NCBI GenBank assembly: GCA_035084275.1
Contig: CM068762.1
Span: 9,920,001 to 9,984,000, forward strand
Reading direction: 5' to 3'
Source: Hydrolagus colliei
Taxonomy: Eukaryota
DNA: 64,000 nt
Shown piece after piece: positions 92 through 58,469 of this stretch. Numbering within the stretch: position 1 is the first letter of the stretch; every line of letters starts with the position of its first letter. Below the pieces are notes generated by a model. It worked only from the letters and a program-made list of their open reading frames with translations, was not told the DNA's origin and did not search any database. The translations under genes and the position numbers were made by a program.

Positions 92-325
92 CTTTCTCCA
101 CTTTGAAGTCTTCAGGAAGGAGGCTGTCTTGTCTGTTGCCGAGCACAAAGGCCAAGAACGACAGAATGAGGGCATCGAGGATCCCAATTATAGCCAGAAT
201 GTAGGCCCAGCGCACAGAACATTCTCCCAAAGTGTACTTGTCAGTCTTGTTCCCACACATTTGTTTGACTGCATCTGAATCCCAACCATCAGGGTAAATC
301 ATGCATCCCATTATGAGGCTGGCCG
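92..325 (-). CDS. lhfpl5: LHFPL5 (TMHS), coding exon 2
   Basis: Acceptor ttttttatcttcag|CG at 325 is phase-compatible with exon 1 (G+CG = Ala). Encodes AASLIMGCMIYPDGWDSDAVKQMCGNKTDKYTLGECSVRWAYILAIIGILDALILSFLAFVLGNRQDSLLPEDFKVEK. Donor AAG|gtgagt at 92/91; 234 nt. The terminal exon is outside the window. Confidence 0.9.
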
Positions 326-41555: not shown

Positions 41556-41970
41556 CAGAAGCCAGTTGCATCCAGGCGCAGACTTTGTAGACAGTGGCCG
41601 AATTGCAAAAGAAAAACAGACTGAAACTGATGATGCAGCCGACAATCAAAAGCATGGAGATGCCGACAAAGAACATGGCAGTTTTGAAAGCTCCAGAGGG
41701 GATGGAACCAAAATCCAAGGCGCTTCCCTTGCAGATCAGCTCCCTGGTCAAACCATTGCCAATGCAGTAGTGAAAGAGTCCGAAATAGCCGGCTTGAGGT
41801 GTGTTGATGCTGTCTCCTATCCAGTAAGGCTGGATGAAACACACCACAGTGATAATTGCAAAGCAAATAGTGAAAATAGCCCACAAGACACCTATTGCTC
41901 TTGAATTCCTCACGTAGTTGGTGTGGTAGATCTTGGCAGCCTCTTGGGCTGGGAGCATTTTGTCTCCCAT
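41556..41970 (-). CDS. lhfpl5: LHFPL tetraspan subfamily member 5 (TMHS), coding exon 1
   Basis: Translates [37 protein letters not shown]...[25 protein letters not shown]...ELICKG...AFKTAMFFV...CAWMQLAS. The ATG at 41970 is in strong Kozak context (aagATGG). The exon is 415 nt (138 codons + 1 nt) and ends at a G|gtgag donor, phase 1. Family is certain; the paralog call (5 vs 3/4) rests on AAKIY, ELICKG, KTAMFFV and the head-to-head position next to colipase. Confidence 0.9.
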
Positions 41971-50041: not shown

Positions 50042-51653
50042 AAGTACCCTGAGATGTCCTCCCTGAAGTGATTATTATTAATGATAACAATGAATAATAA
50101 TCAAGTGAATGTGAACTAAAGCCACTCAAAGTGAAATCTTTGTCTCTTCTTCAAATTTTGAATGTTTGTGCGGTAATGAACCTGGGGAGATCAATGTGAA
50201 TTTCACTCAAATGATTCAGGCAAAAATACAATAATTGCACTTGTGTGGGTTTGCTTCTCGATTCACTCGCACCGTGGATTGTGAAGGAAAGACTGGGAGA
50301 GTAATAATCAGTATGGCATTTCCTTTGAAGAACAATCTGAGCTAAATGTCTGTTTCCTCTCGCTCAGCCTGGGATGCACAAATGGATGCACTTTTCCTCC
50401 TCTAATGACTGTCCACGCTCATTGCATCCCAGAGCTGTCCATTGTCCAACTCGTTTCAACCTCAGGGGTCAAACACCATTGAACTATCCAGATAGAAATG
50501 GATGCAGAATGATTCAAAATGTGTGTATGTATATGAGTGTTTTTAACTTAACTCTATTGTAATTTACTTATTGCAATCAGAATGACTTGCGCTGGTTATT
50601 TGAGAAAATTGGTCACCTGTTTGGAAATGACCCATTAAGGGCAATGAATACTGAGGACAAAAGTTTGCCTGCCTTACCTCTGATGGACTTCATTATCTAA
50701 GAATTACCTCAGAGGATATGCACCAAAATTAATGGCCGGTTCAATAAATACCCCCCTCTTTCTCAACACAGCAGCGGGTTGCTTTTCATTGCACCCGTCC
50801 ATGGTCTTATAGTCGTTGTCTCTTAAAATTTTGATTTGAAATTAAGAATAATTTTCTCTTGACATTTCTCTTGACATGCTAATAACAATATCGCTAACCT
50901 TGAAAGATGGATTGTTTAAAAAATTCCTGTCCACAGTGGAGACGCTGAAACCTGAGTGGAATGAGTACAGCTGCTCCTATTAATTAGACCATTTCTTTGA
51001 CATTAACAATTAACTTTGACGGCTAAAACTTGCAAGAGCCCTGAACTCGGATTGAAAAGAAATGGATTGATAATTCCGCATTATTCTTCACCTCTCAAGG
51101 TAATAATAACTTGCATTTCCTGAGCGCCATTGTGTTTTAAAAAAAAATCTCTCTGAGCATTCTACAAAATAAAATTGATTGAAAATGATGAATTTTATAT
51201 AATGGCCATCCATTTCAATGGCTTCCTGGGTCTTTCAACAATGCTGTGTGTAAATTGGCTCCCACAAATGCTTACAACGATACAGTCGCTGGTACTCTGT
51301 AGAAAATCCTGTCAAGTGATTTGAGAAGTGAACGGCGCTGCATCAAATGTAAGGATTGTATCGCTATTGTTATTATCTATGTAGAAAACTGCAGCAGCTT
51401 CAAAACTAATGCTGAGCGTTGGAAATGTTTTGTCTAAAATGAGTTTCAAAACTATAAATCATAACTTTAATTTGCTGCTCTATTTGTTCCCTTCCGTGAA
51501 AGTTAGCGTCTTGAGGAGTATTAGGGATAAGGCACAGCAGTGGGATTGAATAAACATCTTGCTCTGAGAGAGCCAGCACACACTCGATGGCCTCTTTCTG
51601 CACTACCATTTCCTATGTTTCTGCTGCCTTTTTCTACCCATGCCGTAGCCAGC

Positions 51654-52500
51654 AAACAACAACAACTACAACAACCACCACCACCAACAACAACAACAAC
51701 ATTGCAACTATATAGCGCCTTTCACATCGGGAGGACTTCCCAAAGCGCTGAACAGTCTGGTCGGGACCTGAGCGGGGGGTGGTGGGGGAGGGTCGAAATA
51801 GGGGAAAGGGGAAGGAGAGTGGGGGAGGGGGAAGAGTTAGTGGGGCAGCTGAAGGCGCAGCCGAAGAGGAATGTCTTGAGACCGGCCTTGAAGGAGGAAA
51901 GGGAGGAAGCGAGGCGGAGGGGCTGCGGGATGGAGTTCCAGTGTGGGAGCAGAGAGGCTGAAAGCCCGGCTGCTGATGGTTGGGCGGTTAGGGCGATGGA
52001 CGCGGAGCAGGCCCGAGTCTGCTGAACGGAGGGTGCGGGCACAGGCTGGTAGGGAGACAGTAGGTCAGAGAGATAGGTGGGGGCAAGGCCGTGAAAGTGA
52101 GGACAAGGATCCTGAATTCGATCCTCTGGATGACGGGGAGCCAGTGGAGACGGGCGAGGGTGGGAGTGATGTGGTTGTGAAGCCTGGTACGGAAGAGTAC
52201 ACGAGCTGCAGAATTCTGAATGATCTGCAGCCTGTGAAGGGAGGAGCTGGGGAGGCCGACGAGGAGAGAGTTCCCGTAGTCGAGCCTGGAAGTGATAAAG
52301 GCGTGGATGAAGGTTTTGGCGGCGTGGGGGGTGAGGTAGTGGCGGAGTCTTGTAATATTGCGGAGGTGATGGAAGGCTGTGCCTGGAGCGGATGTGGAAG
52401 GATGGCTCGGGGTCGAACAAGATGCCTAGATTCCTGATTGGCTTCGAGAGGTGGAGAGAGCAGCCTTGAACGCTGATGTTGTCAGCGCCTGAGGTGCAAA
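51654..52500 (-). mobile_element. L2 LINE, 5'-truncated (~850 bp)
   Basis: IRNLGILFDP...LHWLPV-type segment and WNSIPQPLRLASSLSSFKAGLKTFLF across frameshifts; C-rich UTR, stem-loop and (TTG)n tail. Confidence 0.92.
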
Positions 52501-53132
52501 GAACACAGTTTGTTTCTAGCCCTCCAACAACGCTGTTGCCAATCAAGCCACTCGAGGCTGCTATCCCCCTCATATTCCCACCTTTTCTTTTACTATTCTT
52601 CTTCTTATTATGCACACTCAGGCTGGCAGAGATTGGAATTGCCTGTGAAACAGATGCTTAGAAAAAGAGAGTCAATTCGACTCAATTTCGATAACTCCTT
52701 CGGTCAATAATGTATCCGACAGCCAGAAGTACAGAAATGTGCACCTTTTCTCGGTGGTTTCAAACACGGATTGAAACCATGATTGCATTCTTTGACCTCC
52801 CTTCGTTTGTCTGACCTCAGAAGAATTGTGTTTCCTGGAATCCTAAATCTATTCTGAGTGAAACGGTAATTGAATTGCAAGCGAAACAAAAACAATAGGT
52901 GTTTTTCTTTTTTTTAAAAAAGATTTGTTTCCCCCCTCTACTTGTTGCTTCATATGTGCTTCATATATTTATCTTTCATGGCATAGGGGAGAGGAACGAT
53001 TGCAGTCAGCAAGTGAGTGAGTAGCTACCAAATCAATTCAGATGTGACTGATTGGCTTAATGATTCCTAATTTGAGTGAATAGTCCTTCATGTTCTGGGC
53101 TGACAAAACGCGAAAAATACGTGCCGCGAATT

Positions 53133-53362: not shown

Positions 53363-56180
53363 TATTGCCTTTGCCAATATTTTTATTGTCATCATTCTTT
53401 CCAAATCTTTGCTGAGAGATTGTTTGATGCCTATCTTCCTGTCTTATGGAGGACAAAGGACTGATCCGTTGAGGCTTGTTAATTGTGAACTTGTATCCCT
53501 GACAGCTCAGATTCAATTACTTCACATGGAGAGGAGAAGTGTGTAGAGTGGACAACCCAGAGAGGAACATTGTCCTGCCAAAGCCGAGAGGGAATTGGAT
53601 AACTATTTGCCAAATAGGTCGATTGAGCGGTTTGTGAGACAGAGTTTGCATATTACCTATTCTTATTGGATTTTAGGCAGCTGATCTTTCCAGGTTCTGC
53701 GTTATCCTCTGCTCCCTTGCTAATTTCTCGTGTTGAATGGTCAATTAAATTTTGGAATGCTTGCCAAGGCGTTTATTATTTTGAGATGAAAGGCTCAATG
53801 CAAGCTGTTGTTATGATAGGCTCCTTTCTCTCAACTAACCACCTGGGCATCAAGAGGAATAAATAAGAAACTCCTTATCAATTCAGATAGCCACCTTTGG
53901 GCGTAGGCAAAACAATATGAATTGCACCACCACCTCGCAGTTGGATTCGAGTTATTGCCTTTTTTTTTTGCTGCTCATCTTTTCCTAAGCTTTTGCTAAA
54001 GCAATCAAAACAGCAATCAAGTGGCTTAGTCGGGGTGGAAAGAAGAAGAAAAAACGCTTGCTAATCCTCTGATTGCCTGATACAATAAAGGTGGTTCCCC
54101 CCACCCACCCGGCACATCATTAGACTGAAATAAATGGTTCGAATTCATTGGCTACAAAATCTCATTGTGGTTTATGGGGTGGCCGCTGCCACGTTTGACT
54201 CTGTATCTATCGCTCCACTGATCGTTTCTGATCAGTCGTGTTTTCTTGAAGTGCTTTGAAATGTTACAAGTTATCATAATTAATGTAGGATTCAATACAC
54301 AGATCAGAAGGTCGCAGGTTCCAGTCCTGCTCTGTCCTGACATAGTTACAGCTGCCGAGCCAACAAATGATCAACAGACTCGCTGCTCTTAATCACTAGC
54401 CTTTGCTTCTGGTTGTAGAATGTGCTGAGGATTAAGTTCAGCTCCAATTCTCTCCAAAGTTGAATGAACTACATGCCTGTATTCACCAATAGCCTCCACC
54501 CATTCCTTACTCCCCACAGTATCCTTCCATTACTTTCTACTCCACATGTGTGCATCTCTTAAATGCATCTACACTACTGGCTTCAGTCACTGCCTCTATC
54601 TTTTGACCCACGAAAGTAACGCAGTTGAGAGAAGAAGGAATGTAGTTCCTTTGGATTCATTTTGATGCTTCCGATAATCTGGTTTGTCATCATATTCAGT
54701 GGTTAGGCAAATGTTGGCAGAGATCCTGATAATTATGATCAATAAAGCCAATTAACCAGATTAAACCAACACAATGTGGTGTGTTTAAATCCACCGTTCC
54801 CTAAACGTTGGCGATTTATGAAGGATGTTAACGGTCTCGCCCCACAAAAATGGCGTCAATACTGACGCAAATCTTCATCCCTAAAGAATGTGATGGCTTC
54901 GACATTCAAAACCCTGATTGCATTTGAATTAAAACAATTTAACCCTTTCGGCCCACGATTTGAAGTAGTGCGTTCACCCACTGAGACATTGGGGGAAGCC
55001 TTAAAGTAAGGGCAAGATATTTCAATGCCATTCACTAAGAATAGCAAATTCAGCAATGTGCCAGTCAAAGGGTGAATAATAATAATTATTATTATTTATT
55101 ATTCATTATTATTTATTATTAATTATTATTCATTTGACATAGCACCTTATCACATCTTTGACACGTCTCAAAGCGCGTCACGGGTTTTACTGTAAAGTGA
55201 ATTGACTGTATATTTTCTTCCAAGTTACAAGTATTCTTGGCCCTGTGTGATTTAGTTATCTGCTGCCACATTGTATATTACCATGAGTGACCTTATCAAA
55301 CATGTTTAGCTATATTGTTTATCTTGCAATGCGATAAAAATGATTAAGTGCGCAAACACTCAACATCTGTGGCTTGGGACAGCATCAGATAAACTGCTAC
55401 AATAATCCGGCAATGAGGAACATTTAACAACCGTGTTTTGCTTGTCACGATTTCACTACCAAACGCACAATATCGACGGGCTCCAGTAGGACACGTGGCA
55501 ACTAGAACCCCACTCCATATATCGCCTGGGTGCGTGAGGCGGTATCTGGAGTTGTAACCACTCGTGTTTTTTTAACCATTTTTTGAAGCAACACACTGTT
55601 TTGTGGGGACATCGCTGCGTGTGATCGGCTGGTGCATTTCGTCCACAAACTATACAGTCAATTCACTTGGTAGCACCTTCCGTTCTGTGAAGCGCTTTGA
55701 GACGTCTCAATGACATGATAAGGCGCTATATAGGAAATGAAAGGATGATGATTGTCAAGTGTGAATGTGCAATTGGTGGTGGGGGGATGGGGTAGGGAGA
55801 GAGGGATGAAAAGTGCGGGCGGGGGGGAAGGGGGCAGGGAAAGGAGAAGACAACGAGGGTTTTGGGGAGGTTTTCTATTTGTATTGAATGTGATTACAGC
55901 AAAACTATATTCGTAGAGCACGTTTCATGTGTTGGGAGGACATCCCAAGAGCAGGTGCTATAAATACAGTAAAAGCGGGCCATCTGTTCAAATAAGATAA
56001 GATAGAAAGATAAACACACGGACAGGGAGAGGCCAACCCTCTATTGACATGCACGTGGAGGACATTTGCAACAAGTTCCAGCACCAGTCTTTATGTGCGA
56101 TCAAATTTCGCCGCAGCGATTAAAGGGATCAAGGTTAAACATTAATGAATCTTAAAGCACGTGAGCGAGATGGATGCCTT

Positions 56181-56187
56181 TATATAG
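56181..56187 (+). promoter_or_regulatory. Probable TATA box of clps
   Basis: TATATAG 70 nt upstream of the clps ATG, consistent with a short 5'UTR. Confidence 0.6.
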
Positions 56188-56250
56188 GAATCACCAGGGA
56201 ATTGTCATTCACCGGCGATTAAAATTGTCCAGTTACCAAACCATTCCAAA

Positions 56251-56331
56251 ATGAAGACGGTTCTTATCTGCCTGGCGTGCTGGATTGCTGTGGGAATAGC
56301 AGCTCCTGAGAAAGGAATATTTATCAACTTG
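56251..56331 (+). CDS. clps: Pancreatic colipase exon 1 (signal peptide, activation peptide, GIFINL)
   Basis: Manual translation: MKTVLICLACWIAVGIAAPEKGIFINL (27 codons), followed by a gtaagc donor, phase 0. Matches the procolipase N-terminus (human APGPRGIIINL). Confidence 0.95.
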
Positions 56332-56378
56332 GTAAGCAATACACTCGGACACCTGATCTCATCAAACGATTAGATTCA

Positions 56379-56645
56379 ATAATAATAATAATAATAATCC
56401 TTGCATTTTGATGTAGTACTTTTTACGTCTTCAAGACGTCTCAAAGCGCTTCACAGAATATACTGTAAAGTGAATTGACCGTGTATTTGTGGGCGAAACG
56501 CGGCAGCCAATTGCTGGTTTTTTTTTGACGGATTATTATCATTAGGCGTGTGGAGTAAGGAAACTTTCACCCTGACCTGCCTGGATTCGAACACAGGTCT
56601 CATGCTTGTAAGGCGAGCGCTCTAACCAGTGAGCTACAGGACTCC
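56379..56645 (-). mobile_element. SINE family A in clps intron 1
   Basis: Consensus match with core deletion; antisense to clps. Confidence 0.9.
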
Positions 56646-56923
56646 ACATGTTGCATGTTATTGTTGATTAAATAATTGAAGAATTATTAGCATTCGCTTG
56701 AATCAAGTGCAAGCAGATGGAGATGTGTAATAGCGTCAGACTAGACTAGATGCGTTCTCTATCACATTGGGTAGCGAACAAAAAAACCTGTTAAAGTATT
56801 TCGCTGGCTGGGTGGCTTTTGATTTCCCCAAGCTTATATATATATATTTTTTACAGCCGATTATTGTAGTCCAATTGATGATGAACGTTGATGTGCTGTA
56901 AGGTTGTGTTTTTCTTTGTTAAG

Positions 56924-57046
56924 GACAATGGAGAACTGTGCATTGGAAGCTTTCAATGCAAGAGTGACTGTTGTCAGAGAGACACTGCATTGAGTCTCTC
57001 TCGATGTGCAAGCAAAGGACCCGAGGGAGATTTGTGCTCTAACCAT
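56924..57046 (+). CDS. clps: Pancreatic colipase exon 2
   Basis: Acceptor tgtttttctttgttaag; 123 nt encoding DNGELCIGSFQCKSDCCQRDTALSLSRCASKGPEGDLCSNH; donor gtaagt. Compare human ENGELCMNSAQCKSNCCQHSSALGLARC. Confidence 0.96.
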
Positions 57047-57598
57047 GTAAGTAGATTTTGGCAGTAAGTTCCCTTACTTATGGCGCTTATTATTCTGTGA
57101 TGAACAAACTATGCATCGATTCATTGAATTTTCACTTCCGAACTTAACCAAAACTTAATAAGAGTGTGTCTTGACATTCACTCGAGTTAGTAAATAGCAA
57201 GTTTTACCGTGTGTGAAAGTCTTGTCACCTTTTTTCCTTAAACTCAAGTAACTTTTAATAACTGAATTTTATTAAAGTGAGTTTGCCAGCCTGTGCCATA
57301 CACTCTTTGTTTGTTGCAAATTGGCATCGATACCATTCTAGGAGAAAACAGAAGCATATCTTTGTTCGTTCACAGATATCTAGCTTTTATTACTGTCCAT
57401 AATCATTGATTAAAATTGTTTCCATTTATACACTGACTACTCTAGATGTACAAGCTGTTTTGAATCTTTTAGAGCTTGCCTTCTGTTTAAGATATTTTAG
57501 GGAGTTTAAAAAGGGGATTTTTTGTTTTTACCAGCAGTGATCTTTCTCTCTGTGGGATTTCTCTTTGGTAAATAACGAGGTGTTTTCTACCGTTGCAG

Positions 57599-57751
57599 TT
57601 CCTGTACAATGTTTACTACAGATGTCCCTGTGAGCGGGGCCTGAAATGCGATGGGGATAAATCTTTCATTGGTTCCATAACCAACACCAATTTTGGCACC
57701 TGCATAGACCCAAATGACAAGACAAAGGTTATTGAACCAAAAGAAGACTAG
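57599..57751 (+). CDS. clps: Pancreatic colipase exon 3 (to stop)
   Basis: Acceptor ttttctaccgttgcag; encodes FLYNVYYRCPCERGLKCDGDKSFIGSITNTNFGTCIDPNDKTKVIEPKED*, with TAG at 57749-57751. Motifs LYxxYYxCPCERGL and GSITNTNFGxC are colipase signatures. All 10 mature cysteines are present. Confidence 0.96.
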   Translation, partial: FLYNVYYRCPCERGLKCDGDKSFIGSITNTNFGTCIDPNDKTKVIEPKED

Positions 57752-57845: not shown

Positions 57846-57851
57846 ATTAAA
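57846..57851 (+). terminator. Probable clps polyadenylation signal (ATTAAA)
   Basis: First poly(A) hexamer seen after the stop, about 95 nt downstream. AATAAA alternatives occur near 58280 and 58312. Confidence 0.5.
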
Positions 57852-58469
57852 TCTTGAAGGCGGGTAACAATTGAGACTGCGAGCTTCCTTTCCAATCTAA
57901 CAAGGTGACTAGTTGTGTGCGATCTTCCCATTGATTGATTGAAAATCACTTCAATTCATCTTAATCCAAGTGTGACGATGCCTTTCGTTTTAGTCTAAAG
58001 TCACAGCACGGCCCCCAAAAGCTCTCGGGTTTTATTATACGCGGTTAATTGCAAAAATGAAACCTCGAGCTTGTCTGATTAAACACCGGGCAGAGATAAA
58101 CCTTTGTCGTTGAAATGCAACACGTACCGTGGAATGAACAATCGGAAAATGCACTGTTTTATTCAGGAATATGTAGATTTCAATAACACTCCAGCGAATC
58201 AATCTCTCCGCTCGACTCGTATTCTCCTTCGATGATTTGTTTTCCTTCATAGCGCCTTGCAGTCCTGCGTGCTTTTATAAATAAACCTGCTTGTCGTCTA
58301 CAATGATGTCCAATAAAACATTGTTTTGCATTGAAGTTGCCTTGCTCTCCTCGTTCCTTTCTCGCTTAAACCCATCTTGAATGCGAAGAGGATTAACGCG
58401 TTTGTGTCGGATGCGCAGTTGAACAATTCTCCCCAAACTTGAGTATCCGCAGGCACTGTGTGTTCTCCT

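Follow-up and report, generated by a model that had tools for sequence, protein, structure and literature searches.

A colipase gene beside LHFPL5 and an SRPK-family gene in the chimaera Hydrolagus colliei

The 64,000-nucleotide stretch of Hydrolagus colliei DNA analysed here (the window) carries a three-exon colipase gene, CLPS, near its right end, with LHFPL5 on the opposite strand to its left (Table 1). A sequence-only reading of this DNA had proposed three phase-0 CLPS exons with GT-AG splice sites. Their coordinates and sizes were borne out: the joined coding sequence is 357 nt long, contains no internal stops and translates into 118 amino acids followed by TAG. The same reading described the gene as invisible to the open reading frame track, which is true but trivial. 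A list with a cut-off of 100 amino acids misses CLPS because the open frame of each exon spans only 59-61 codons, and such an absence is to be expected of a small gene interrupted by introns. Other candidate splice sites were rejected in favour of those chosen, because the latter align the protein without gaps to an orthologue known from cDNA, that of the elephant shark, Callorhinchus milii, and splicing in this chimaera is thus predicted from the orthologue. A high-copy repeat lies in intron 1, at about 56402-56669. Two small-share read runs, X1 and X2, covered only this repeat and a few bases within 56804-56870. In run X3, whose kind is unrecorded, CLPS was covered by unspliced contigs for which a single difference, in an intron, is listed outside the repeat; the assembly may derive from this run.

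Table 1. Features of the colipase locus, its neighbours and the pancreatic-lipase-family locus. Numbers without a prefix are positions in the window.
Feature	Position	Strand	Remarks
LHFPL5 coding exon 2	92..325	-	behind a 41.2-kb GT-AG intron
LHFPL5 coding exon 1	41556..41970	-	divergent from CLPS; ATG-to-ATG spacing 14,280 nt
TATA-like hexamer, candidate core promoter	56181..56186	+	65-70 nt 5' of the ATG; called from sequence only
CLPS coding exon 1	56251..56331	+	81 nt; predicted signal peptide (about residues 1-17), predicted propeptide APEK, start of mature colipase
CLPS intron 1	56332..56923	+	592 nt, GT-AG, phase 0, GTAAGC...TTAAG
CLPS exon 2	56924..57046	+	123 nt; Colipase N-terminal domain, 6 cysteines, contacts E15, L16, R38, E45 (pig numbering)
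CLPS intron 2	57047..57598	+	552 nt, GT-AG, phase 0, GTAAGT...TGCAG
CLPS exon 3, coding part	57599..57751	+	153 nt; Colipase C-terminal domain, Y55/Y58/Y59, E64, R65, 4 cysteines, TAG
ATTAAA, candidate polyadenylation signal	57846..57851	+	95 nt past the CLPS stop; a sequence motif alone
Two V1R/ORA genes	L002:2497-3522 and L004:3454-4551; G000:C29:9,986,497-10,008,551	- and +	head-to-head
SRPK-family kinase gene	L014:6255 to L013:3258	+	left of LHFPL5, tail-to-tail with it
ELAPOR-family gene	L019-L018	-	beyond SRPK, where mammals have SLC26A8
Pancreatic-lipase-family gene	G000:C15:24,594,386-24,604,312	-	apparently intact; GHSLG serine motif, full-length lid

Upstream of CLPS, a second TATAAA lies at 55959; downstream, AATAAA alternatives to the candidate polyadenylation signal lie at 58280 and 58312. 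A canonical PTF1 site, with an E-box and a TC-box spaced by one or two turns, was sought in the 500 nt 5' of the gene (55751-56250) and not found; 46 of 1000 shuffles of this upstream sequence held one. Three GATA motifs occur at 55995-56013, which chance could explain (117 of 1000 shuffles).

The spliced translation has 12 cysteines. Two of these (residues 7 and 10) lie in the leader, and the mature protein has the other ten, which correspond to pig procolipase positions 17, 23, 27, 28, 39, 49, 61, 63, 69 and 87, a colipase spacing that would allow five disulphides. Both the LYxxYY and CPCERGL motifs are encoded by exon 3, in which a short C-terminal tail precedes the stop. The 118-residue product with ten mature cysteines and these two motifs was therefore read correctly from the sequence. 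Tyrosines 55, 58 and 59 (pig numbering), whose interfacial role is well known, are CLPS residues 71, 74 and 75.

Domain searches place the gene in the colipase family. The proposed Pfam check was run and gave strong matches in the expected order, each above its curated cut-off: Colipase (PF01114) on exon 2 (E 1.6e-15; 57 bits, cut-off 27) and Colipase_C (PF02740) on exon 3 (E 1.4e-21; 76.8 bits, cut-off 23.7). The only strong matches of the exons in PDB were pig colipase chains (1PCN/1ETH), so that the best hits outside the family that the earlier reading had allowed for did not appear. When four colipases were compared by tblastn with 244 kb of sequence, the three CLPS exons were recovered in their proper order, at E values from 9e-28 to 0.008; beyond them nothing scored better than E 0.41. 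Compared with longer proteins, exon 3 found C. milii colipase as its best match; the corresponding cluster has 8 named members, including one RefSeq NP_ record (NP_001279556.1). In a tree of 16 rows, built with neither a CLPSL nor a Dickkopf outgroup, the chimaera protein is sister to C. milii (support 99/99) within a chondrichthyan group (100/98). The tree, the gap-free C. milii alignment and the domain-bearing protein matches support an intact chondrichthyan CLPS orthologue, as had been suggested.

The elephant shark protein (NP_001279556.1; UniRef K4G6J6) also has 118 residues and aligns without gaps across both exon junctions, with 108 of 118 positions identical (92%). It shares the APEK propeptide, the cysteines, R65 and the C-terminal tail. 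Ten substitutions separate the two proteins, far more than the 1-2 by which C. milii records differ among themselves, as expected of two distinct holocephalan species. Colipases of other sharks and rays (Stegostoma, Amblyraja, Rhinoraja, Mustelus, and the purified dogfish and stingray proteins) have a four-residue propeptide and the same cysteine frame as the chimaera, but they carry N, S or D in place of R65. Two skate records are 71-74% identical to the chimaera protein, and skate colipases stop 8 residues earlier. Mammalian records are 46-57% identical. Porcine procolipase (PDB 1PCN, 1ETH, 1LPA), aligned by way of C. milii, matches without gaps over pig residues 4-89 and shares the ten cysteines, Y55/Y58/Y59, E15, L16, R38, E45, E64 and R65. 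A three-finger colipase fold is predicted from this gap-free match to 1PCN; the predicted structure of the C. milii stand-in is poor, with a mean pLDDT of 54. The chimaera tail is longer than that of pig and other mammals, and its propeptide, APEK, differs from the mammalian VPDPR, which is present in all four mammals compared. The enterostatin pentapeptide X-P-X-P-R does not occur in the chimaera, which has a tetrapeptide there, as do 5/5 chondrichthyan records. Chondrichthyan propeptides have 4 residues, those of mammals and gecko 5, those of ray-finned fish 6 and that of axolotl about 16. Within the alignment, Arg65 is limited to holocephalans and mammals (the chimaera protein and 4 of the 14 database rows); it is missing from the other 10, which comprise all the sharks, rays and ray-finned fish, the axolotl and the gecko.

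These features make it very probable that the chimaera has an intact CLPS gene, the sole copy detected, encoding a procolipase that trypsin likely activates and that likely anchors pancreatic lipase to fat droplets. Residues 4-17 of the leader are hydrophobic (mean Kyte-Doolittle value 2.76), which together with homology argues for secretion. By alignment, the APEK propeptide directly precedes a mature start of G-I-F-I-N-L, and the sequenced N-termini of mature dogfish and stingray colipase, as given in the text of PMC3098174, match this start. In the mechanism we envisage, the signal peptide would be removed and the procolipase secreted; by analogy, trypsin would cut after Lys21 and release the four-residue propeptide; and the mature protein would hold the chimaera pancreatic lipase encoded on C15 on bile-coated fat droplets. 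We infer expression in pancreas or gut, splicing, cleavage after Lys21 and a cofactor action on the C15 lipase. According to PMC7094207, colipase binds the C-terminal domain and the open lid of pancreatic lipase and anchors the enzyme at a bile-salt-covered lipid interface. All six of the lipase-contact residues E15, L16, R38, E45, E64 and R65, taken from Table 2 of that paper, are present in the chimaera; pig R44 is replaced by Pro. Stingray lipase inhibited by bile salts regains activity with stingray colipase (PMC3098174), and the chimaera colipase may reactivate a bile-salt-inhibited lipase in the same way.

The partner enzyme was sought with the Pfam Lipase model, which gave at least 45 matches in the genome, with clusters on C1, C6, C15, C22 and C33. 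Among the matches found, only the C15 gene combines a small-exon layout, a full-length lid and pancreatic-type C-terminal exons. AG acceptors precede all 11 of its exon motifs that were checked, and active-type residues follow the catalytic Asp. Three near-identical large-exon lipase copies lie at C1:153.14-153.30 Mb and two convergent copies at C33:3.74-3.76 Mb; by exon size these resemble the LPL/LIPG/LIPC type, and the copies on C1 may stem from recent duplication or from an error of assembly.

The C15 lipase retains the lid contacts N241, S244 and D248 and the C-domain contacts Q369 and K400, with Met in place of V247. Its KFLWNN motif, however, has Leu and Asn where human lipase has Ile402 and Tyr404, the single finding that speaks against a simple colipase-cofactor reading. 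The Leu402/Asn404 state is also found in human PLRP2 and in the smooth-hound lipase, which is not activated by its own colipase (PMC7094207). Colipase dependence of the C15 lipase is not assured, because it shares these residues with that unresponsive enzyme. The locus may thus hold a true colipase whose sole pancreatic lipase is largely independent of it, of PLRP2 or smooth-hound type, with colipase playing a weak, modulating or different role; we consider this unlikely, but of the alternatives it survives best. The single pancreatic-lipase-family gene found has the residues described at 402, 404 and 247, PLRP1/PLRP2 structures are the best matches of both its lid exon and its C-terminal exon, no tandem paralogue was detected within 78 kb around it, and the remaining Pfam Lipase loci show large exons or short lids that are typical of other subfamilies. 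A catshark pancreas transcriptome is likewise reported to contain only PLRP1/2-like lipases (PMC4362833). Against this reading, five contact residues are retained in the C15 lipase, and human PLRP2, with Asn at the 404 site, is still partially reactivated by colipase (PMC7094207); the stingray lipase mentioned above is reactivated by colipase. R65 is the partner of Tyr404, and a R65-Y404 pair is not a general requirement, because R65 is lacking from 10 of the 14 aligned database colipases. Moreover, a second chimaera pancreatic lipase may have been missed, because the counts from the genome search are lower bounds.

The gene to the left of CLPS is 96% identical to shark LHFPL5, 93% to that of gar and 79-81% to LHFPL3. 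In PDB it scored best to mouse-type LHFPL5, and in a tree it grouped with all 13 LHFPL5 rows, with a support of 92/92 that lies below the starred threshold. A separate LHFPL3-like locus on C13 falls with LHFPL3; a locus on C20 lies apart in this tree, which has no LHFPL4 row, and is labelled LHFPL4-like from motif likeness. Tree, PDB scores, identities and strands all support the assignment to LHFPL5 and its divergent orientation to CLPS in this genome, both of which had been proposed. The first LHFPL5 intron (window 326-41555) makes up most of the window, and a subset of its ORFs of at least 100 amino acids gave no Pfam match over cut-off.

The SRPK paralogue to the left of LHFPL5 gave a split assignment, one exon matching SRPK2 best and another SRPK1. 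To the right, the first V1R gene lies 8.7 kb past the colipase stop. Both V1R genes are intact and intronless and encode 318 and 319 amino acids (Pfam V1R, E 1.6e-59 and 3.5e-55). Beyond them, exon-like frames on the minus strand at L005:1759-5196 gave no Pfam match; we take them to resemble a transmembrane and death-domain protein, TMDD1-like. The V1R genes have features that we presume to be those of ora1/ora2 and, with their head-to-head layout, look like this pair. A head-to-head ora1/ora2 pair is known in elephant shark (PMC4728799). No mention of lhfpl5 was found among the papers listed by a literature search on V1R/ora genes.

Human CLPS and LHFPL5 are, on our assumption, also arranged head-to-head. 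The human order is FKBP5, ARMC12, CLPSL2, CLPS, LHFPL5, SRPK1, SLC26A8, MAPK14 (PMC11321361) and the horse order is CLPS, LHFPL5, SRPK1 (PMC8515666), as these papers give them; the CLPS-LHFPL5-SRPK order of the chimaera matches that of both of these bony vertebrates. The shared synteny comprises three genes only. The outer neighbours in the chimaera are the ELAPOR-family gene, rather than SLC26A8/MAPK14, and downstream of CLPS the V1R pair, in contrast to the CLPSL2, ARMC12 and FKBP5 of mammals. FKBP5 was not found as the right-hand neighbour; there were at least 21 FKBP_C matches in the genome, of which the nearest on C29 lies about 7 Mb away. In the teleost Conger conger, the records of colipase and of lhfpl5b both give a contig of 54,225,905 bp, a hint that the two genes share one chromosome. 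The simplest reading of the sharing between a holocephalan and mammals is that the CLPS-LHFPL5-SRPK block is ancestral to jawed vertebrates, and we hold this to be probable. The earlier proposal of an ancestral gnathostome CLPS-LHFPL5 arrangement is accordingly likely by parsimony, given the gene orders of chimaera, horse and human. No statement of this synteny in cartilaginous fish was found in the part of the literature searched, and the available portions of PMC11817882 and PMC11979771 hold nothing on the CLPS locus.

Most likely the neighbourhood represents passively inherited microsynteny and not a shared promoter. That CLPS and LHFPL5 have been kept head-to-head by shared regulation, through a bidirectional promoter or a shared enhancer, is improbable. 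The adjacency is indeed kept in chimaera, horse and human, and no Pfam-detectable gene intervenes: none of 72 ORFs (71 non-repeat frames of at least 55 amino acids and one repeat frame, from the spacer and the region 3' of CLPS) exceeded a family cut-off, a set in which small exons of the spacer could be missed because of the 55-residue minimum. The GC-rich frames at window 51634-52657, between the two genes, gave no Pfam match; judged by motif, we take them to be a decayed LINE-2-like fragment and not a gene. However, 14.3 kb separate the two ATGs, and repeats make up about a quarter of this spacer. LHFPL5 acts in hair cells and CLPS in the pancreas, and these different tissues, together with the distance, argue against a shared promoter. 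The gap between the two genes is also wide in horse, at 11.5 kb (PMC8515666), and CLPS is reported missing from several teleost genomes (PMC9386070, PMC3466250), yet lhfpl5 persists in teleosts. We therefore return to passive inheritance as the preferred account of the block.

Least credible of all, and largely refuted, is that the locus is a CLPSL-type paralogue, another protein of colipase fold (a Dickkopf domain or a prokineticin) or a recent pseudogene. Exon 3 does give sub-threshold Pfam matches to the Dickkopf C-subdomain (E 0.013) and an MIT-like family (E 0.021), which have this fold in common, but the Colipase_C match is stronger by 19 orders of magnitude, and both colipase domains are present in all 11 of the candidate proteins that the exon 3 search yielded. 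The gene has canonical splice sites and neither a stop nor a frameshift, and it differs from most C. milii records by at most 11 substitutions with none at a cysteine. PF01114 and PF02740 each match the 1.0-Gb genome once, at CLPS, with no other colipase locus found (counts that are lower bounds); divergent colipase-like paralogues may have escaped these two models.

The chimaera gene is an ordinary one-to-one orthologue of the elephant shark gene, which has already been described. With 92% identity to that protein, a job that is likely the same and LHFPL5 as a neighbour shared with mammals, the finding is therefore ordinary. Purified colipase from both dogfish and stingray is described in PMC3098174, colipase is included in the catshark pancreas transcriptome (PMC4362833), and a full-length intestinal cDNA of elephant shark Clps (JX052805) was reported in 2012 (PMC3466250). 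The last of these papers also describes Clps as a gene that tetrapods retained and four teleosts lost, and PMC9386070 restates that colipase is missing from zebrafish, medaka, fugu and stickleback. Loss is not true of all teleosts, because Conger conger has a colipase-like record; such records also exist for bichirs and bowfin. Database records show lhfpl5 to be retained in teleosts.

This work adds one more holocephalan CLPS orthologue and a small synteny fact, that the CLPS-LHFPL5-SRPK block is probably as old as jawed vertebrates. The neighbourhood provides a landmark for mapping the loss of colipase in teleosts, of which the Conger eel still has a record. The gene also bears on whether colipase was required by the pancreatic lipase of early vertebrates. 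The chimaera colipase is highly conserved and has a mammal-like Arg65, although the only pancreatic lipase found shows the Asn404/Leu402 surface of colipase-independent fish lipases; that this lipase hardly needs its colipase is, on present evidence, rather unlikely. If it were true, the ancestral jawed-vertebrate lipase would have been PLRP2-like and loosely tied to colipase, with strict dependence a later specialisation. It would also explain the loss of clps by most teleosts from a locus whose neighbours (lhfpl5 and the V1R pair) were kept.
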